A stretch of DNA of 64,000 nt from a virus, in the IMG/VR virus record IMGVR_UViG_3300045988_173816, positions 128,001 to 192,000 of that record; one strand, written 5' to 3'. The translations under genes were made by a program, and so were the position numbers. Positions within the stretch are counted from its first letter, which is position 1; every line of letters begins with the position of its first letter. Below, one piece after another: positions 4,042 through 17,042 of this stretch. Under the pieces are notes generated by a model. That model was not told where the DNA came from. It saw nothing but the letters and a program-made list of their open reading frames with translations, and did not search any database.

Positions 4042-4491
4042 ATGAGCAAATACAATGGTTTAAAAAGAGACCAATTAGAGAAGTTGGTTTTAGAAAGGTT
4101 AACTTGGTTTTTTAAGTATTTAGAGGGTCAGTCGTCTTATCCTATGGGTAAGTTCTCCACGGGTATCCCTTCTCCGAATGGGGGAGAATATTTAGTTTGG
4201 GTAGGTTGCTCTGAGGGTACGATTTCTTTTACTTTGCAAGATACTACTGGAGTTGATTATCACAATATCAAGATTGATAAGTTTGGTGGTGCTAGACAAG
4301 TTGTAGAGATTGCAAGTAGACCTTTTAGAGAAACAGGTGTTATTTGGTTTGGTAAAAGTTTCAGTCTTCGTTGTGATTGGGATGACTTGAAGAGCAGCCC
4401 AACTATGTTCCTAACACAAGCTCTACGTGTGGTTAGAAAGAAAGACCAAGTATTAGCTTATTGGTTAGGGTTGGTTCACATTTTACAATAA
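4042..4491 (+). CDS. Hypothetical protein, paralogue family A (divergent)
   Basis: ORF with an RBS, same size class and same C-terminal helix pattern as the family members. Confidence 0.65.
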   Translation: MSKYNGLKRDQLEKLVLERLTWFFKYLEGQSSYPMGKFSTGIPSPNGGEYLVWVGCSEGTISFTLQDTTGVDYHNIKIDKFGGARQVVEIASRPFRETGVIWFGKSFSLRCDWDDLKSSPTMFLTQALRVVRKKDQVLAYWLGLVHILQ

Positions 4492-4990
4492 TGAGGAGAT
4501 GCCTTAAAGCCTTTTTGCTACAACGTAGGATGAAAATTCAAGCGTGAAGGTAGCGAAAGCAGAAAGAAGAAACAGGATGTTGATACAACTTAGTAGTTGA
4601 TACAAAAGTGAACGGTTATAAAGCTGAAATAAAAGCTAATCAGTGTCTAGTAAATAAAATAGTGACTGCTAGAAAACGTTAGTGCTAAGTCAATACAAAC
4701 AAGGGTAAGTTTCGGTAGGAATGTCCTAAGTTTCAAAAAAAATGAGATATGGTTAACCTCTAACGACTATCTTCTGATGGGGGAGTAAAGCCACAAGCTA
4801 AAGGTGGAAGAAAAATCTTTGGTCTAACTACTCATAAAAGTTGTGTTAGAGTAGTTCAGATTGACATATAGTCTGCGCACAGTTTGTAATGGAAGTGTCT
4901 AGGAATTGACCTAGCTGTTAGGGGTTGCGCCTTAATGGAAACTATCAAAAGTACGAAAAGCACATTGAAAACTGAATAACACGATAAAAA
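4492..4990 (+). ncRNA. Candidate structured RNA upstream of RHH-tnpB (group-I-intron-like?)
   Basis: No ORF >20 codons. 8-bp hairpin 4826-4833/4849-4856, nested hairpin 4875-4930, 10-nt direct repeat GTTGATACAA at 4579 and 4596. GACTA (4765) and TAGTC (4869) loosely resemble group I R/S core elements. Confidence 0.3.
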
Positions 4991-4994
4991 TTTG

Positions 4995-5023
4995 TTGCAT
5001 TAAATTCAATAATATGATACAAT
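4995..5023 (+). promoter_or_regulatory. Sigma-A-type promoter for RHH-tnpB
   Basis: TTGCAT, 17-nt spacer, TACAAT. Confidence 0.55.
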
Positions 5024-5055
5024 AGGTTTATCAAATGTTTAAGGAGAAAATCGAT

Positions 5056-5232
5056 ATGACAGGAAGACCTAAATCTAAAAAGGGAGTTAAGGTACATACT
5101 GCTTTCAAAATTTATCCAAAGGATAAAGAAAGAGCACAAGTTATGGCAGATAAACTTGATATGAGTCTGTCAGCGTACATTAATAAAGCTGTTTTGGAGA
5201 AGTTAGACTATGATGAGAAGTCAGAAGCTTAG
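5056..5232 (+). CDS. Ribbon-helix-helix (CopG/Arc-like) DNA-binding protein
   Basis: AAGGAG RBS 9 nt before the ATG at 5056; the listed start at 5035 has no RBS. Basic N-terminus, beta strand VHTAFKIY, then two helices (KERAQVMADKLDMSLSAYINKAVLEKL). Confidence 0.65.
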   Translation: MTGRPKSKKGVKVHTAFKIYPKDKERAQVMADKLDMSLSAYINKAVLEKLDYDEKSEA

Positions 5233-6451
5233 ACTAAAACTAACCATGGAGCAAGAAAGTCTTGCATGGTGGTATAGTAAGGTCTCACGCAACTATTGGA
5301 ACCTCTTAGTTGATATTGATAAACGTAATAATAAAGGTGAATTTGATGAAATTTTGAGTAGAAATGGGAATAAAACTTATTACTCAAAATTCTATGATAG
5401 AGATATTTATAGTCTCAGTCAATCCGATTATCTCAACCTTGCTAAGATTGTTGTCGCTAAAAACTATGATGAAGATGATGAAGCATGGTCTTGGTATTAT
5501 CAACCGAATCAATCGTTTATCTATGCTTTTCTTGTTAAAGAATTAGTAAAAATTAAGATACAAAATAAAGGTAGATTAAAATTTAGAAGTATCGATAAGA
5601 TTCGACCAAGCTTCAATGTTCGTTGTGATATTTCAGCTGATAAGAAACGCTCTAGTCGTATTTATCTAAAAGATAACGGTAAACTTCAAATTCCGACTCT
5701 CGGAGATGTTAATTTCGGTTCCACTAGAAAAGATTTCGATTTATCAGGTAAGAAACAAGTTGCTAATATTTCCTTTGATGGGAAGTATTGGTACTTGTCA
5801 TACATGGTAGAGATTGAAGTTCAAGTTACTGATTTACCAGATTATACAGATGGTGTTGGAGTGGATTTAGGTATTAAAACTCTTGCGACTGTTTCTGATG
5901 GTACTATTGTGCCTAATATCAAGACATTCAGACGAGTTCGTATCTTAAACAAGCGCTTGAAACGATTACAACGTAAAGTTTCTCGTAAATACCTTATCAA
6001 TAAATGCAACAAACACAATAAAACAAAGAACATTATTAAGCTAGAAAGAGAAATTAAATTGATACACCGTTCACTAAGGAACATTCGTATCAATCATATT
6101 CGTAAATTTGTCTCAGAGTTGGTTAAGAAACAACCACAATATATTGCAATCGAGGACTTGAACGTAAAAGGAATGATGAAGAACAAACGTCTTGCAAAAG
6201 ATATTGCGAATTGTTCCTTTTATACTATCAGAGAACACCTTATTAGAAAGGCGAAAGAGCGCCAAATAGCGGTTAGGTTGGTAGATAGGTTTTATCCTTC
6301 TAGTAAGACTTGTTCAAAGTGTGGTAGTTACAAACAGGATTTAAAACTCAGTCAAAGAGTGTATCCTTGTAATAACTGCCAAGAGAAGATAGATAGAGAT
6401 TTCAACGCTTCGATAAATATTGCAAGAACAGACAGATATATCCTAGCTTAA
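5210..6451 (+). CDS. tnpB: TnpB-family RNA-guided endonuclease (IS200/IS605 accessory protein)
   Basis: Complete RuvC triad: VDLGIKT (D), IAIEDLNVKGM (E), DRDFNASINI (D). Zinc finger CSKCG..CNNC. Typical N-terminus KLRLKLTMEQ. Confidence 0.9.
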   Translation: MMRSQKLRLKLTMEQESLAWWYSKVSRNYWNLLVDIDKRNNKGEFDEILSRNGNKTYYSKFYDRDIYSLSQSDYLNLAKIVVAKNYDEDDEAWSWYYQPNQSFIYAFLVKELVKIKIQNKGRLKFRSIDKIRPSFNVRCDISADKKRSSRIYLKDNGKLQIPTLGDVNFGSTRKDFDLSGKKQVANISFDGKYWYLSYMVEIEVQVTDLPDYTDGVGVDLGIKTLATVSDGTIVPNIKTFRRVRILNKRLKRLQRKVSRKYLINKCNKHNKTKNIIKLEREIKLIHRSLRNIRINHIRKFVSELVKKQPQYIAIEDLNVKGMMKNKRLAKDIANCSFYTIREHLIRKAKERQIAVRLVDRFYPSSKTCSKCGSYKQDLKLSQRVYPCNNCQEKIDRDFNASINIARTDRYILA

Positions 6452-6684
6452 TTGATTTGTTTTATTGCCTTTGGAAACTAGAGGTAACTAGTTTCAGTGG
6501 TAGGTCAGCCGTAAAGCCGAACCACTATAATACACACGCCCTGAAAATTATGAGTATAGCAAACAAAGAGTAGCTTTGGCAAAATTTGGCTCAATATGGG
6601 AATGTCAACTGTGTTATTCAATTTTTGATTTTTAGCACTTTTGACTGACGGTTAACTTATCGAACTTCACAAAGCGAAAACGCT
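6452..6684 (+). ncRNA. Putative omega-RNA / right-end region of the TnpB element
   Basis: ORF-free tail with perfect hairpins 6474-6495 (8 bp) and 6670-6687 (7 bp), plus stem 6496-6501/6531-6536. TnpB guide RNAs are normally encoded at the 3' end of tnpB. Confidence 0.35.
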
Positions 6685-6945
6685 TTGTATATAGACTTAG
6701 TTACGTTAGATAACCAAGCCCTTCAACCGTTTACTATTCAAGTGTATGTGAAGGATAATATTCCTTGGGTGCATTTGTACTATTTTGATAAGAATAAGGT
6801 AAATAAAACAGTGGATGAACCTCTAACTGAGGTTCAAACTACTTTGGCAGATTTAATTAGTGGTATACCAAGTCAAAGTCGTGTGGTAGCTTTTAGAGAC
6901 GCATTATATCTCAATTTAAGAAGTTTTGTTTATTGGGAAGATTAG
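6685..6945 (+). pseudogene. 5'-truncated family A paralogue
   Basis: Only a TTG start, and it lies inside hairpin 6670-6687. Lacks the ~50 N-terminal residues seen in paralogues. The frame is open back to 6649 only. Directly abuts the TnpB element. Confidence 0.35.
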
Positions 6946-7128
6946 AGGTGTAAAGTTAGGGTATTCAAAAGCAAAGTAAAAGAAGAATTATTACAAGAGC
7001 TTAAAGATTTTATCTTTTGGTATCGATCTCAACTCGCAAAGGATTTAGTAGGACCTGTATATATTGACGAACCTTTAACTCGTCAAACAGTAGCTAGTGT
7101 AACGGTTTATAATGATTTTTCTGTATCT

Positions 7129-7386
7129 GTGGGTTTAACTGACCTTAAAGAAAATCCGTTATTTGAATTTGAGATTGATTTTAGGACTACTCTCAATTCA
7201 GAGTATGTAGTTATTAAATACTGTAGTGAAGAAGGGTTGAGTTCTGTTGATACTTTAAGGTTAACTGACACTGAGGGTATCGACCGTTTTCTAGTTCAAG
7301 CTATTAAGGTTATTCCGTCTGAAACTTACATCAAGCATTACTTGAATATTTTCCAAAACCACATTCGTGGTTGGTTAGTTTTATAA
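7129..7386 (+). CDS. Family A paralogue; frame open from 6946 but no canonical start before GTG 7129
   Basis: 147 sense codons run from 6946, in frame with the upstream ORF and separated from it by a single TAG. An AGAGGTG RBS at 6944-6950 suggests a lost or non-canonical start near 6955-6961. Confidence 0.5.
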   Translation: MGLTDLKENPLFEFEIDFRTTLNSEYVVIKYCSEEGLSSVDTLRLTDTEGIDRFLVQAIKVIPSETYIKHYLNIFQNHIRGWLVL

Positions 7387-7406
7387 ATAGAATTGAGGTA
7401 AAAACA

Positions 7407-7685
7407 ATGGAAAATCAAACAATTTCAACACGCGGAGTAAGATTGAAGTACAAAGATAGTTATGTCCAAGCAGTCATTCTTCCAGATGGTCGCAAACTAG
7501 CGATTACAGGTAGCACTTATGGTATGGGTGCTCCAATCTCAGCTTTGACAGATATTGCATTGGCTAAGAAGTCAGATTTGAAGTGGGTGTTAAGTGATTT
7601 ATTGACTTATGGGTATCAGGAAGTTGATGGCTCTGCGCATTATGAAGAATTGCGAAATATCGGTAACACTTTACCTTGGAACTAA
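7407..7685 (+). CDS. Hypothetical protein, paralogue family B
   Basis: ATG at 7407 with a GAGG RBS. VQAVILPDGRKLAITGS matches the next gene. Confidence 0.7.
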   Translation: MENQTISTRGVRLKYKDSYVQAVILPDGRKLAITGSTYGMGAPISALTDIALAKKSDLKWVLSDLLTYGYQEVDGSAHYEELRNIGNTLPWN

Positions 7686-7706
7686 GTAAAGAAAGTAGGT
7701 AAATAT

Positions 7707-7985
7707 ATGAACAACATTCAATTTCGTTTTGAAACTTCATACGGTTATGATTTTGTCCAATTTGTGATTTTGGATGACGGTCGTAAGTTTGCAATTAAAG
7801 GGCAGATGGGAGTAGGTTTTGCTATTCACCCTAGTTACACAATTTATGTGAAGAAGAAGTCCGAATTGAAAGATTTCTTGGATAAAGCTATTCAATATGA
7901 TGGATATGTTTTAAAAGATAATTACACTGATAGATTAGAACTTCAAACATACGAAGACCATGTTTTTCGTTTCTCATCTAACTAG
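7707..7985 (+). CDS. Hypothetical protein, paralogue family B
   Basis: VQFVILDDGRKFAIKGQ, a paralogue of 7407-7685. Confidence 0.7.
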   Translation: MNNIQFRFETSYGYDFVQFVILDDGRKFAIKGQMGVGFAIHPSYTIYVKKKSELKDFLDKAIQYDGYVLKDNYTDRLELQTYEDHVFRFSSN

Positions 7986-8000
7986 AAAAGGCGGTATCCT

Positions 8001-8210
8001 ATGCGAAATTTTGCCTTATATAATCCGAGTAATGATTTATATGTGTCTTATGTCGTTTTCAATCGTAAGACAAAGAGTTATGATATTGAGTTTACACGTG
8101 ACTTACACTCTATTCGTTTTTGGAAGATTAAGTCAAGTGCAGAAGCTCAGGCACAACGTGTTTTCGATTGGAATAGGAATGTTGCTTTAGAAGTGAGAGA
8201 GCTTCGTTAA
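8001..8210 (+). CDS. Hypothetical protein
   Basis: Short ORF with an RBS, last gene of its operon. Confidence 0.55.
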   Translation: MRNFALYNPSNDLYVSYVVFNRKTKSYDIEFTRDLHSIRFWKIKSSAEAQAQRVFDWNRNVALEVRELR

Positions 8211-12273: not shown

Positions 12274-12609
12274 ATGTTTACATGGTTTTTATTACTGAGA
12301 GCAATCCACATAACTGTTGTAGCTTTCTTTTATTTTGTTTGCTGGGCATTTATGTTTTGGACAGATACTAAAGGGTACTTTCGATATTATAGTAAAGTCA
12401 GATTTACGTTAAAATCGCTCTTATCTATCCTTTACTTTGTAGATTTCTCTGAACTCCACTCTGTATCTGAGGTTTCAAGTTTCCATATTTGGGTATCCGC
12501 TTTGCTAGTTCTGCTTGACATTGCTGAAATGTGGTCTAGGAGTTATCGAACACTTGGTTTCAAAGAGTTTAAGAAAAACTTTGGTAAAGCAGCTTACTTT
12601 TTCATTTGA
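12274..12609 (+). CDS. Small membrane protein
   Basis: ORF with an AGAAGGA RBS and 3 TM helices. Confidence 0.6.
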   Translation: MFTWFLLLRAIHITVVAFFYFVCWAFMFWTDTKGYFRYYSKVRFTLKSLLSILYFVDFSELHSVSEVSSFHIWVSALLVLLDIAEMWSRSYRTLGFKEFKKNFGKAAYFFI

Positions 12610-12626
12610 TATAGAAAGTTGGTATT

Positions 12627-12869
12627 TTGGTTATGATTCATGAGTTAAAAATCGCTCCTAACTACTTTGAGAAAGTTGTCTCTAAAGAAAAATCTTTTGA
12701 AGTCCGTTATAATGATAGAAATTTCCAAGTTGGGGATATTCTAAAGTTGATGGAATATACTGAGGGTTCTTATACAGGACGTTCTGTTTATGCTAAAGTA
12801 ACCTATATTCTTCAAGATTTTGAGGGTCTACAACCAAATTTTGTAGCTCTTTCGATTGAATTGATTTAG
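12627..12869 (+). CDS. ASCH/DUF3850-like (PUA-fold) protein
   Basis: HELKIAPNYFEKV..KSFEVRYNDRNFQVGDIL..YTGR matches the DUF3850 pattern. Confidence 0.6.
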   Translation: MVMIHELKIAPNYFEKVVSKEKSFEVRYNDRNFQVGDILKLMEYTEGSYTGRSVYAKVTYILQDFEGLQPNFVALSIELI

Positions 12870-12883
12870 AAAAGAGGTTTTAC

Positions 12884-13210
12884 ATGAATTTCAATTCTGA
12901 GTTAAATACTATTCTCAATGCTGGTTTATTCATTGGTTTTGCTAGTCTTTGGATTTTCCACGTGCTATGTTTTTATATTCCTCTTCTTGTTCCTTCTTGT
13001 AGAGACTTAATTAAACTTAAAGACAGCGATTTGAATACAATTTCAAATTTCACAAGTGAAGTAGGAGTTGGGTTTATTATAGGTTTAGGTACAGTTTCTT
13101 CATTGTCTTCTAAAGTTTATGATGCTTCAGGTTACATTTACGCACTCGTTTCCACTCTAGCTTTTTGCTTAATTTGGAGATACGTTAGAGGACATTGGGT
13201 TTCTGATTAG
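12884..13210 (+). CDS. Small membrane protein
   Basis: ORF with an RBS and 3 TM helices. Confidence 0.6.
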   Translation: MNFNSELNTILNAGLFIGFASLWIFHVLCFYIPLLVPSCRDLIKLKDSDLNTISNFTSEVGVGFIIGLGTVSSLSSKVYDASGYIYALVSTLAFCLIWRYVRGHWVSD

Positions 13211-13225
13211 AGGATGAGGTATCTA

Positions 13226-13576
13226 ATGATTATTTTAGGTTTATTTTGGATTTATTGGTTTGCTGTCTTGTTTACTCTAATGAGAAGTCCAGAATTACAA
13301 CATTATTTAAGACTTAGTGATATTCAAGCAACTAAATCTTTAACTTTCAGTTTAGTTTTTGTAGGTTTGTCTTGCTTAAGTTTGTTAGTGGTTACTAGTA
13401 TAGGCTTAACTTATTACTTAGAGTTTATAGCTCTTAGTTTAACTGTAATAGGTTCTCTAATTTCTCTATTGGTTTTACAAACAGGAGGTTGTAAATGGCA
13501 CAAAAGAAAAAGAAATACTACGCAGTCAGAAACACTAATCAAATCTTCGAAGATTGGTCTGATTGTGAGAAAGTAG
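13226..13576 (+). CDS. Small membrane protein
   Basis: ATG at 13226 has a GAGG RBS (alternative ATG at 13214). 3 TM helices. The 3' end overlaps the RNase H start. Confidence 0.5.
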   Translation: MIILGLFWIYWFAVLFTLMRSPELQHYLRLSDIQATKSLTFSLVFVGLSCLSLLVVTSIGLTYYLEFIALSLTVIGSLISLLVLQTGGCKWHKRKRNTTQSETLIKSSKIGLIVRK

Positions 13577-14223
13577 TAAAAGGGGTTAAGGGTGTTGAGT
13601 TCAAAAGTTTTCCTACAAGAGAACAAGCTGAAGCTTATTTGAGAGGTGAGGAACCAGTATTGTCCACAAAGAAAACCTCCGAAGTTGTTCCTTATGTCTC
13701 AGATTGTGGGATAAAAGGTACAATTCGTATGGCAGAAGACTCTGACCCACTCCTTTGGGGTATCGAGGGTTTCGTTTATTCGATTGACGGCTCTTTCAAT
13801 ACACAAACTCAAACTTACGGTGGTGCTTTTGCTTGCTATGAAAATAGTGTATTGTTAGATGCTCAAGCAGTTGCAAATAATAAACCAAATTTCGCTGCTT
13901 CAAGAAATGTAGCAGGAGAGGTTTGTGGTTTTGGTTTGGCGATTGAAGATGCGATTAAGCGCCAACTTAGTAAAGTAACTATTGTTTGTGACTATGAGGG
14001 TATCTTTCGTTGGTCTGCACCTAAGTCTGTAAAGGTTAATGAACAAGCTTGTTGGGGAACATCATTGAAGAAATCAGTTGGGAAGTACCATGCTTATATC
14101 TTGCAAAGAGCCAAAGAACATGGAATTGAAGAGGTTGATTTCATTTGGGTTAGGGGACATAGGGGTTTAAAAATCAATCAAACAGTTGATAAGTTGGTGA
14201 AGAAAGTTGTCGGATTGAAGTAA
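13495..14223 (+). CDS. Ribonuclease H (type 1) with N-terminal hybrid-binding domain
   Basis: AGGAGG RBS. N-terminal KYYAVRN..W..C...V.G..G..FKSFPTREQAEAYL is the RNase H1 / caulimovirus-type HBD. C-terminal DGS..AGE..CDYEG..H..N..VD acidic residues fit the RNase H fold. Confidence 0.8.
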   Translation: MAQKKKKYYAVRNTNQIFEDWSDCEKVVKGVKGVEFKSFPTREQAEAYLRGEEPVLSTKKTSEVVPYVSDCGIKGTIRMAEDSDPLLWGIEGFVYSIDGSFNTQTQTYGGAFACYENSVLLDAQAVANNKPNFAASRNVAGEVCGFGLAIEDAIKRQLSKVTIVCDYEGIFRWSAPKSVKVNEQACWGTSLKKSVGKYHAYILQRAKEHGIEEVDFIWVRGHRGLKINQTVDKLVKKVVGLK

Positions 14224-14265
14224 AAGGGATAGGTGTTCTTTTGTTATCTACTAAATCATACAGTC

Positions 14266-14294
14266 TTGTCATTTTGGGTTATTTCTGATATAAT
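14266..14294 (+). promoter_or_regulatory. Sigma-A promoter for orphan tnpB-like gene
   Basis: TTGTCA, 17 nt, TGaTATAAT. Confidence 0.55.
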
Positions 14295-14326
14295 ATAAAT
14301 ATGTTAAAAAGAAAGGAGTTACCGAT

Positions 14327-15691
14327 GTGAAAATACTGTCTAGCTATAGAATTAAGTTAACTGGCGATTTGAACGCTTTAGATAATTCTATTGCTATCTA
14401 TCGTGAAGCACTTCATTTTATTATCCCTATTGTAAGTACGCATTGGGATGAAATGAAAGATTTTAAGTATGTGAACCAACGTATGAGTTATATTGAGAAA
14501 CTGATTCATTCCACCAAAGTAAGTCATTCTCTTTATAACTTCGACAAGGATTTTCCTAAATTTCCTTCTTATTTACGTAGAGCGGTTATTATGAAGTCAG
14601 TGGGTATCGTCTCTTCTTATCACAGTAACTTAGCAAATTGGGAAGAAAAGAAAGTAGAACTAGAGGTAAATGGTGAGAAAATACCTCAACGTCCTCGTTT
14701 GGAGACTCATCATTTTGACTATCCAGCTTATTACAAAGGAAACCTTTTCCGCAATTTCAACCCTATCACCCAAACTATTGATCTCAAAGTCTTTAAAAGG
14801 GGAGACTGGGTTTATGAAACTTATACTTTAAAAACTTCTGATTGTAATTACTATCAGAAAAACCTTGCAAATAAGAAACAAAATGTTCCAGTAATTACGA
14901 AGAGAGGTCGTCGTTTTTACGCTACTTTCTCTTATGAGGAAAACGTTCCTTTAATAGCAGAGGATAAGATTGAAAAGATTTGCGCTATTGATTTAGGTTT
15001 GACTACAGATGCTACTTGTTGCATTATGGGTGCCGATGGTACGGTTTACGCTCGAAAGTTCATTCAGTTCAGCGAAGAACACGACCAATTAAATACTCAG
15101 TTGGGTCGCATTAAGCGAAATCAAAAACGAGGTAACAAGAAGAATACTCGGCTTTGGAAGAGAGTTTCCGGTATCTCTCAAAATATTGCAGATAAAACTG
15201 CTCAAGCTATTTTTGAGTTTGGAAGTCAATATGGAGTTGATGTTTTCGTACTTGAGTTTTTAGACTTTAAAGGAAAACAAACGGTTAAACGCGCGCATTT
15301 TTGGCGCTATAAACGTATCTTTTCTGTTTTGGGTATGAAAGCTCACAGACATGGTTTACGGATTTCGAGAGTTTGTGCTTATAACACCAGTCGCTTGGCT
15401 TTTGACGGTTCAGGATTTGTAAAACGGGGGTGTAAACTCAGTAAGGAAACCCCTTATAGCATTATCCAGTTTGCAAGTGGTAAAGTCTATAATGCAGATT
15501 TAAATGCTACATATAACATCGGTGCGCGTTATTGGATACGACACCTATTAAAAACCGTTACGGTGACGCAACGGTTAGCACTTGAGGCAAAAGTTCCTCA
15601 AGTAGCTAAGAGGAACACCTGCACCTTGTCTCACCTCATTAGTCTAAGAAGTGAACTTCTTGCGTTAAACGTGAAGAGAAATCAGGTTTAG
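14327..15691 (+). CDS. tnpB: TnpB-like RuvC nuclease lacking the zinc finger (orphan, no TnpA)
   Basis: GTG start with an AAGGAG RBS. Acidic triad retained: CAIDLGLTTD (D), VFVLEFLDFKG (E), NADLNATYNI (D). The usual CxxC..CxxC segment is replaced by YNTSRLAFDGSG. FPSYLRRAVI resembles the OrfB N-terminal domain. Confidence 0.8.
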   Translation: MKILSSYRIKLTGDLNALDNSIAIYREALHFIIPIVSTHWDEMKDFKYVNQRMSYIEKLIHSTKVSHSLYNFDKDFPKFPSYLRRAVIMKSVGIVSSYHSNLANWEEKKVELEVNGEKIPQRPRLETHHFDYPAYYKGNLFRNFNPITQTIDLKVFKRGDWVYETYTLKTSDCNYYQKNLANKKQNVPVITKRGRRFYATFSYEENVPLIAEDKIEKICAIDLGLTTDATCCIMGADGTVYARKFIQFSEEHDQLNTQLGRIKRNQKRGNKKNTRLWKRVSGISQNIADKTAQAIFEFGSQYGVDVFVLEFLDFKGKQTVKRAHFWRYKRIFSVLGMKAHRHGLRISRVCAYNTSRLAFDGSGFVKRGCKLSKETPYSIIQFASGKVYNADLNATYNIGARYWIRHLLKTVTVTQRLALEAKVPQVAKRNTCTLSHLISLRSELLALNVKRNQV

Positions 15692-16065
15692 ACTGTATGG
15701 AGAGAAAAGGAGTCAATACCGGGCAGAGGTTGAAACACCGAACCTGTTATTGAAGCTCCATTTAAACGTAGTTTAGGTGGTGAGGTTTCACCCGTTTGAG
15801 TTGAAATTTGTTTGGAGAACATTTATACTTAATGAGAATGATAGAATTTTATTCAATGGCAACTCTTATCAGTTGGTTACTCAGAACTATCAAAGTGGTT
15901 GGTATGCTGCAACTCCAAAGTTAGCGAAAACTAAAGCTAAGAAATATATATATATATATTAAACAAGGGTATCTCGTAGAAGGGTCAAAAACTCAAAGTC
16001 ATGGAATTCCTATGATTTATTATCGTTTCACAGGTTGTCCAAAAGATTAGAGTTATAGTTTAGAA
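15692..16065 (+). ncRNA. Candidate guide/omega-RNA region downstream of orphan tnpB-like gene
   Basis: 370-nt ORF-poor tail; the listed ORF 15777-15962 has no RBS. Small hairpins are present. Proposed by positional analogy with TnpB systems only. Confidence 0.25.
15944..15959. repeat. (AT)8 microsatellite
   Basis: atatatatatatatat read directly from the sequence. Confidence 0.9.
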
Positions 16066-16087
16066 GAGAGGTGTAGACCTCTTTTTA
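16066..16087 (+). terminator. Intrinsic terminator
   Basis: AGAGGT-gtag-ACCTCT followed by TTTTT. Confidence 0.6.
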
Positions 16088-16089
16088 TC

Positions 16090-16118
16090 TTGACAAAAAT
16101 AACTTATTTTGTTATAAT
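16090..16118 (+). promoter_or_regulatory. Consensus sigma-A promoter (cassette type 1)
   Basis: TTGACA, 17 nt, TATAAT, followed by AAAGAAAAT. Near-identical to the cassettes at 20188 and 22615. Confidence 0.7.
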
Positions 16119-16150
16119 AAAGAAAATGAATGATTTGAGGTAAAAATTAG

Positions 16151-16588
16151 ATGGATTTAACTCACTTAAACGAAGAGGGGTATAACTTAGCATTACTTGG
16201 TTCGTTTTTACAGACGACAATTATAGAGCCTACTTCAATATCTGCATCTTTGTACGATGATGAACTTACTGAAGGTTTTAAACGAGTTGACTCAAATTGG
16301 ACGCAATATCAAGTATTATATTTAGCTTTAAGTGAGTTTAACACTTTATACTTAACTACTTCAACTGAGGGTGCTATTGCTTATATTCCAGTTACAAATA
16401 TCTATGAGTATTCTTTCCCAAGGGACGGTGAAATCCGAGAGGAAATGAACCGTATGGCAAGAGAATATTTTAGGGAACTAAAACAATTTGTATTTAATCA
16501 TACACACAAATTTAGTGTGGCATTGGCTTATGGTGGTGTCGAAGAAGTTGGTGTAGTTTTCGCAAAAGAGAACAAAGGTGGTAAGTAG
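16151..16588 (+). CDS. Hypothetical protein, paralogue family C
   Basis: YQVLYLALSEFNTLYLTTSTEG..IPVTNIYEYSFP matches the next gene. Confidence 0.7.
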   Translation: MDLTHLNEEGYNLALLGSFLQTTIIEPTSISASLYDDELTEGFKRVDSNWTQYQVLYLALSEFNTLYLTTSTEGAIAYIPVTNIYEYSFPRDGEIREEMNRMAREYFRELKQFVFNHTHKFSVALAYGGVEEVGVVFAKENKGGK

Positions 16589-16589
16589 T

Positions 16590-17042
16590 ATGGTTAAACT
16601 ATTTAAAACAAAAGAAGAGCGTGATTTAGCGTTCGTTTCAAATATGTGGGAGAGACTTAAGCGAAAGGATAAATTACGGGAAGTTTTGAGTTATTCTCAG
16701 ACACCTTATGAGATTAAAGCTTACTTATCTGACCCAGAGTTGAATAAAAGTTTCCGTTATATTGGTTGGGGTCACAAGTACCAAGTCCTTTATTTGGCGG
16801 TAGATGAGACTTATAATTTAGTTTTGACAACATCATGCTCAGGGTATCAAGCTTGGTTTCCGATTTCCGTAATTTATTCTGAGTTCTTCCCTCAACATGG
16901 CACTTTGAGAAGACGTATGGAAAAGTTGGCAAGTCGGTATCTTTTTGAGTTCAACCAATTATTGAGTGAAGTTTCTCCTTTGGAGTTGAAGGTTTATAGT
17001 TCTAACTTAAATCATGTTATTTTAAAGTTTGACTGCTTATAA
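16590..17042 (+). CDS. Hypothetical protein, paralogue family C
   Basis: ATG at 16590 with an AAAGGTGG RBS. YQVLYLAVDETYNLVLTTSCSG..FPISVIYSEFFP. Confidence 0.7.
   Translation: MVKLFKTKEERDLAFVSNMWERLKRKDKLREVLSYSQTPYEIKAYLSDPELNKSFRYIGWGHKYQVLYLAVDETYNLVLTTSCSGYQAWFPISVIYSEFFPQHGTLRRRMEKLASRYLFEFNQLLSEVSPLELKVYSSNLNHVILKFDCL

Follow-up and report, generated by a model that had tools for sequence, protein, structure and literature searches.

What is a TnpB gene with no transposase beside it doing in a jumbo phage: does it work for the phage or for itself? The question is raised by the window analyzed here, a stretch of 64,000 nucleotides that makes up bases 128001 to 192000 of the 284,026-bp virus record IMGVR_UViG_3300045988_173816, which has direct terminal repeats. 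The gene lies at window positions 14327 to 15691 and encodes a nuclease of 454 amino acids. An original prediction, made from the letters alone, described it as an orphan TnpB, possibly exapted by the phage, rather than an active insertion sequence (IS). From comparison with related sequences, positions ~14227 to 15791 (1.56 kb) are probably a discrete insertion, a nonautonomous, left-truncated copy of an IS200/IS605-family (IS605-type) element. Its most likely role, which we propose with a similar degree of confidence, is selfish RNA-guided homing or retention. The prediction therefore stands in that this is not an autonomous active IS, given a phage without the Y1 transposase TnpA and a copy without left-end hairpin or target-adjacent motif. 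The empty sites, the mobile siblings, and the default guide taken from the flank leave its other half, exaptation, unsupported.

Ends of the element and its empty sites

How can the limits of such an element be drawn? A related 248-kb phage (G001) matches the window at 12606 to 14226 and again at 15786 to 16130, with only ~22 nt between the matches. Its empty site reads ...AAAGTAAGAGAAAGGTGGTATGGTTTATGAAATTTGAA|CCTTTTGAGTTAAAAATCGG, and the flank that would supply the guide (see below) directly follows TTGAA. A second relative, L170 (238.5 kb), shows this empty site as well, and the junction in related jumbo phages without the element is TTGAA|CCTTTTGAG.... A 95%-identical copy (L164) occupies this place too, and its left junction is that of the window copy. 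The locus is polymorphic, because G001 and L170 are empty while the window and L164 are filled. The right end is sharp: across 80 metagenomic copies, per-column identity is 0.8 to 0.99 up to position 15791, where the element closes with ...GGTGAGGTTTCAC, and ~0.3 after it. The claim that the gene has no recognizable ends is thus overturned on the right by this boundary and on the left by a remnant that holds the promoter.

The left end is incomplete. Relative to the closest full-length sibling (L072, with the motif TTGAT), the window copy lacks the motif and the first ~35 to 45 nt of the left end, hairpin and cleavage site included, and ~27 nt of flank present in the empty allele are gone. The left-end hairpin is found nowhere in the window or the 284-kb genome, and it is missing from seven of the eight copies from phages related to the window phage. 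The right-end hairpin (~15755 to 15781) is present and covaries (helix 10). The remnant has the dedicated promoter that had been predicted at 14266 to 14294, consisting of a -35 box TTGTCA (14266 to 14271), a 17-nt spacer, and a TG-extended -10 box TATAAT (14289 to 14294), with a score of 11/12. Sibling copies keep both the promoter and the ribosome-binding site.

Is the family mobile? Homologs number more than 3,400, and the best 120 (70 to 95% identity) are on contigs of up to 220 to 295 kb; the genes next to the homologs vary between relatives, with no conserved synteny. The flanks of the 80 metagenomic copies map to many places in the window genome (at least eight others) or to none. One of these places is a base-precise empty site, ...CTTGAA|CTAGAAGAAGC...., whose filled counterpart (L015) reads ...ATTGAA|element...GGTTTCAC|CTAGAAGAAGC..., and the target is not duplicated. 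A gene for a Y1 IS200-like transposase (133 amino acids, PF01797, E=6.8e-34) lies divergently, ~107 nt upstream, in 17 to 20 of 85 siblings. The full left ends, ~20 in all, read TAGTGCCTCGCGCAGACTCCATCCAAACGAAGTTTGGGTGGTGTGAGCGAGG..., carry a hairpin that mirrors the right-end one, and are preceded by TTGAT, TTGAC, or TTGAA. Since siblings have the Y1 TnpA, the full hairpinned left end, and TTGAH, the family is a bona fide IS605-type one with TTGAH as its motif, and as judged from these loci it circulates among related jumbo phages. A megablast search against GenBank phages gave no match, and by tblastn the sole relative was a 40% one on a human fecal phage contig.

Some sibling positions are of interest in themselves. 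In a related 268-kb phage (L073, ODFU01000001.1), a family copy occupies the interval corresponding to window ~4472 to 8113, where the window has another TnpB/IStron remnant; this suggests that the interval is an insertion hot spot for mobile elements. An 86%-identical copy lies within the tRNA gene array of a 265-kb relative (L010:9800-11500). Each flank of this copy ends in GGGTTCGAATCCCACATCTTCC, and the two flanks correspond to the two ends of the window genome (~282.2 to 282.5 kb and 5.5 to 5.8 kb).

The termini of the siblings also have a coding aspect. Among sibling loci L072 to L151, most full left ends open with TAG, TAA, or TGA, and all right ends close with AGGTGGTGAGGYTTCAC, a Shine-Dalgarno sequence plus a GTG start. 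With stops at the left and a start at the right, an insertion in phase would end translation of the upstream fragment of the gene and begin it anew on the downstream fragment. Among 72 independent flanks, 20 have frame 0 open over 40 codons or more, versus 7 and 1 for the other frames. A built-in translational restart was nevertheless rejected: the excess (20:7:1) is not significant (p=0.10) under a codon-phase null drawn from the phases of TTGAH in the open reading frames (ORFs) of the window genome, where 60% of these phases are frame 0 and TGA rules out frame 2.

Can the window copy itself still move? No transposase adjoins tnpB, which has an RNase H gene upstream, and no Y1 TnpA is encoded in the 284-kb genome, so the claim that the gene lacks a transposase partner is upheld. 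Because its left-end hairpin and motif are lost and the genome has no Y1 TnpA, the copy should be immobile by the TnpA route and stranded for TnpA-type excision. There is no second copy and there are no solo ends of the element in the genome. That the copy might be a fully active autonomous IS, with peel-and-paste transposition still going on in the window phage, is suggested by the mobility of the family overall and by the existence of intact, TnpA-bearing siblings, but the missing transposase, the loss of cleavage site, hairpin, and motif at the left end, and the single copy essentially refute it. Intact ends and multiple copies had been named as the marks of an ordinary active IS. They do occur in the wider family, in siblings with full ends and in multicopy bacterial relatives, but the window copy is single and truncated at the left.

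The nuclease, its RNA, and the guide

The tnpB ORF, on the + strand, begins with a GTG preceded by the ribosome-binding site AAAGGAG. Its three RuvC acidic residues had been recognized correctly: D222 (AIDLG), E310 (LEFLD), and D391 (NADLNA) are invariant in 33 aligned sequences with identity down to 27%. In a profile search of the PDB, the protein matches the IS200/IS605 TnpB 9nzp (E=1.4e-16). Matches to OrfB_IS605 and Cas12f TNB in Pfam are weak, the score against NCBIfam guided_TnpB (87.5 bits) is under the 100-bit cutoff, and homologs are annotated with PF27142 “Aq_aa04.” The structural check that had been proposed gave an AlphaFold2 model with a confidence score (pLDDT) of 89.3, for which Foldseek ranks AsCas12f at the top, followed by the ISDra2 and ISFba1 TnpBs. 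The modeled fold is a RuvC-like TnpB/Cas12f fold with a D-E-D triad. A Type V CRISPR-Cas system (Cas12) was considered and rejected, as no CRISPR array is adjacent; the tandem repeats in 13400 to 17000 are only (AT)8 and a weak 6- to 7-mer.

What does the lack of a zinc finger mean? The C4 finger typically lies between RuvC-II and RuvC-III. The absence of CxxC..CxxC noted earlier is real: in the alignment with 9nzp, the CxxC...CxxC positions are occupied by AFDGSG...F.SGK, and the two cysteines of the region are not conserved. The reading of this loss as a sign of exaptation does not hold. The finger is lost throughout the clade, including ~30%-identical bacterial copies in Halomonas/Vreelandella, Orrella, and cyanobacteria, where these relatives are multicopy IS, and is a trait of the clade. 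Some large TnpB branches have lost the finger and “derived” TnpBs have NADXN (Altae-Tran et al. 2023, PMC10691335), so that the C4 finger is typical of IS200/IS605 TnpBs rather than defining. RIIIr-4 is a named major clade without the finger, in which the RuvC-III aspartate is changed to histidine (PMC10691335). The window protein was rejected as a member and falls outside this clade because it retains that aspartate, D391 (NADLN).

The guide RNA appears to be encoded in part by tnpB itself. Synonymous codons become more conserved at codon ~406 (near nt 15542), going from ~0.7 to ~0.9. The structure predicted by RNAalifold over 65 distinct copies has 52 pairs, and compensatory changes occur in 16 of these. 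Double-change cells number 144, against 38.9+/-9 after shuffling (0/500 reach 144) and 5 to 27 with slid partners, and the fold of the window sequence has a z-score of -4.1. Rfam has nothing matching in 14100 to 16200 at E<=1. To judge by this conservation and covariation, the ~250-nt structured RNA is an omega-RNA (reRNA) scaffold. The ~370-nt noncoding tail in which a guide RNA had been expected is not the guide-RNA region; only the 100 nt after the tnpB stop (15692 to 15791) belong to the element, and 15792 to 16130 are phage backbone, present in the element-free G001, with a frameshifted PHROG 31253 gene.

What would this RNA recognize? The guide is probably the insertion flank starting at 15792, which is the default homing arrangement; its length, 15792 to 15811, is taken from known TnpBs. 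In a search of the phage genome, but not of host genomes, the sole near match to the guide, CCGTTTGAGTTGGAAT (G000:C1:236197-236212), has one mismatch and is preceded by ATTAT, not TTGAH. This match may be a paralog of the N-terminal coding sequence of the small phage gene in which the element sits.

Has the element remained functional, or is it an inert relic, a dead and decaying copy whose protein and RNA are idle? The truncated left end and the absent TnpA partner would fit a relic, as would a single copy without solo ends elsewhere in the genome and the stop codons in the tnpB ORF of some siblings. Decay is hard to reconcile, though, with a full-length ORF and an invariant triad, with a promoter and ribosome-binding site that are conserved, or with a dN/dS of 0.11 to 0.20 (0.15 against the same-locus copy L164), by which tnpB in the window copy is under purifying selection. 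The omega-RNA scaffold is likewise 92% identical between the window and L164, with all covarying helices kept. We therefore regard a relic as quite improbable; from its sequence, the window TnpB still looks able to cut DNA.

Possible homing, retention, or benefit to the phage

How might a stranded copy persist? Published experiments have shown that IS605 TnpBs act as homing endonucleases directed by a guide RNA; they cut vacant sites and are themselves restored through recombination (PMC10055086, PMC10690162). A similar course can be proposed here. The element would have inserted 3' of TTGAA, within a small phage gene at its fourth codon, and a later deletion would have taken the left-end hairpin together with the motif and ~27 nt of flank, leaving the copy stranded; both steps can be read in part from the alleles. 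The transcript would be processed to an omega-RNA with the flank from 15792 to ~15811 as its 3' guide. TnpB and this RNA would cut TTGAH-flanked “empty” alleles (TTGAH + CCGTTTGAGTTGAAAT) in coinfecting relatives, and recombinational repair from the filled genome would copy the element in, amounting to selfish homing or retention.

The alleles at the locus bear on this proposal. The window and L164 copies of the element share 95.5% identity (369/405 third codon positions, or 91%), and the 3' ends of the adjacent RNase H genes share only 79.6% (17/30 third positions, or 57%). An element less diverged than its flank fits homing or recombination, not codivergence with the flanks. In other same-site pairs, the divergences of element and flank are discordant in both directions. 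The pairs L096/L129 and L116/L117, apparently at the same site, have backbones that are 97 to 99.6% identical and element variants that are only 89 to 96% identical; this reverse of the window/L164 pattern suggests that the element is replaced or reinvades at fixed sites.

Several points weigh against homing as described. The contrast between element and flank comes from one comparator and 93 nt of flank, and ordinary mosaic recombination among phages could also produce it. The known empty alleles mismatch the guide at positions 3, 12, and 16, and because of these mismatches the window guide would probably not cut them; an empty allele that matches the guide perfectly was not seen among the alleles found so far. 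The element's RNA and the cleavage by its TnpB are predictions from sequence. Finally, the time that the element has spent in the phage, discussed next, is compatible with a benefit to the phage, without being evidence for one.

This residence can be read from the heptamer SGGTATC, which occurs 81 times in the window (~4 expected), on the + strand only and about every 790 nt. A gap of 3.1 kb (4168 to 7274) coincides with the other TnpB/IStron insertion, and from this distribution SGGTATC appears to be a backbone motif that is specific to one strand and under strong selection. The element has two sites, at 14602 and 15169, which is backbone density, as had been pointed out. Both arose by synonymous changes and most siblings lack them. 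The claim of long residence is borne out to the extent that these gains suggest some residence time in the phage lineage; they do not tell whether the role of the element is selfish or useful.

Might the phage then benefit? An exapted nuclease would be kept as a TnpB/omega-RNA pair of use to the phage, for example, for marker exclusion of element-free coinfecting relatives, or as a regulator. The copy is immobilized by the loss of its left end in a phage without TnpA, has its own strong promoter, encodes a TnpB under purifying selection, and has acquired SGGTATC sites by synonymous changes. The same truncated copy is present in the diverged backbone of L164, and seven of the eight copies examined in the phage lineage lack the left end. 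All of these features are equally expected of a selfish homing element, however, and others speak against exaptation. The check for synteny in relatives came out negative, with the locus empty in G001 and L170 and siblings at many other sites. The guide is the default insertion flank rather than a retargeted one, and the RuvC site is intact, unlike that of known exapted TnpBs such as TldR. The insertion has also apparently damaged the neighboring small gene, whose start was replaced and which is frameshifted. Domestication of the window TnpB is not supported, and exaptation strikes us as unlikely.

Selfish homing or retention is thus the preferred reading, and the window element, a stranded TnpB/omega-RNA element of the IS605 type, belongs to a known kind and is unexceptional within it. 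A bolder version is that the unit, without transposase or left end, persists in jumbo phages and spreads between their diverged backbones solely as a free-standing gene for an RNA-guided homing endonuclease, cutting empty alleles during coinfection. We put this forward tentatively, as a possibility that the odds do not favor. If true, the unit would do with an RNA guide what protein-guided homing endonucleases do in T4-like phages, and its carrier might gain a competitive edge. A candidate “domesticated TnpB” is in any case replaced by a delimited element with exact ends, a TTGAH motif, an omega-RNA of ~250 nt that is absent from Rfam, and a zinc-finger-less nuclease of 454 amino acids, which may interest those who mine for compact RNA-guided nucleases. 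Beyond the single copy, an IS605-type family is documented as proliferating in jumbo phages, where most copies lack the left-end hairpin and the histories of element and backbone are decoupled. These two features make TnpA-independent, RNA-guided homing between coinfecting phages testable.

Neighboring features and relation to known systems

The insertion also reshaped the small gene downstream of tnpB. In the window, the right end of the element (AGGTGG plus GTG) provides the PHROG 31253 gene with its ribosome-binding site and first four codons, in place of the original ones. The predicted (AT)8 tract (15944 to 15959) is where this gene is frameshifted; the called ORF stops at 15962, and one more AT restores the frame. 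The shift could be postinsertion decay, slippage-based phase variation, or an assembly error.

Positions of the element's parts and of the adjoining backbone features in the window
Feature	Position	Strand	Remarks
Left-end remnant	14227..14326	+	Holds the promoter and ribosome-binding site AAAGGAG; limit set where G001 homology ends (14226)
tnpB	14327..15691	+	454 amino acids; zinc-finger-less, NADxN-type (“derived”) TnpB clade; Pfam PF27142 Aq_aa04
Putative omega-RNA (reRNA) scaffold	15542..15791	+	Last ~150 nt of tnpB and 100 nt past its stop; ends ...GGTGAGGTTTCAC
Probable guide, target-site flank	15792..15811	+	CCGTTTGAGTTGAAATTTGT; abuts the sharp right end and follows TTGAA in empty-site phages
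Small phage backbone gene, PHROG 31253	15777..16049	+	E=1.9e-16; 86 amino acids in G001
Terminator-like hairpin and promoter of next gene	16067..16118	+	AGAGGT-GTAG-ACCTCT and T run; promoter 16090-16118, 12/12; backbone, both in G001

The wider setting is a window of ~35% G+C with nearly all genes on the + strand. The count of three TnpB-family genes in the window is confirmed, and the 284-kb genome has nine, five of them canonical (~400 amino acids, with the zinc finger) and four divergent. Serine recombinases adjoin three TnpB genes elsewhere in the genome (IS607-type; 201438, 252158, and 21476).

How does the element compare with known systems? ISDra2 of Deinococcus radiodurans and IS605/IS608 of Helicobacter pylori encode TnpBs with a RuvC D-E-D triad, as the window element does. 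The placement of the candidate omega-RNA is that of IS200/IS605 OMEGA elements, in which the RNA shares the 3' part of tnpB and stops at the right end, and the flank acts as the guide. IS200/IS605 elements also have a 5-nt target-adjacent motif and insert without target duplication, and the window family is alike in this; its motif is TTGAH, and that of ISDra2 is TTGAT. Hairpins lie near both ends in IS200/IS605 elements and in the window family, whereas the window copy has the right-end one only. The divergent Y1 TnpA of IS605 is likewise present in intact siblings and absent from the window copy. Relative to ISDra2, IS605, and IS608, the window TnpB is longer (454 amino acids), belongs to the NADxN “derived” branch, and has no C4 zinc finger; the copy lacks the motif and left-end hairpin, its omega-RNA falls outside Rfam, and it resides on a jumbo phage that looks virulent, not on a chromosome. 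The NADXN of “derived” TnpBs (PMC10691335) is present in the window protein as NADLN.

Two other kinds of elements invite comparison. TldR-like exapted TnpBs resemble the window element as immobilized TnpB homologs on phage-like genomes. TldR proteins have lost RuvC catalysis and have guides aimed at promoter targets, whereas the window element combines an intact triad and a probable guide taken from its insertion flank with a locus that is not conserved. TnpA-less, tnpB-only IS1341-type elements and free-standing phage homing endonuclease genes resemble the window element in that each is a lone nuclease gene driven by a promoter of its own. Like them, the window element occupies a locus that is polymorphic between related phages and is less diverged than its flanks. 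It differs from the protein-guided homing endonucleases of phages in that its target recognition, if it homes as proposed, would be guided by RNA.

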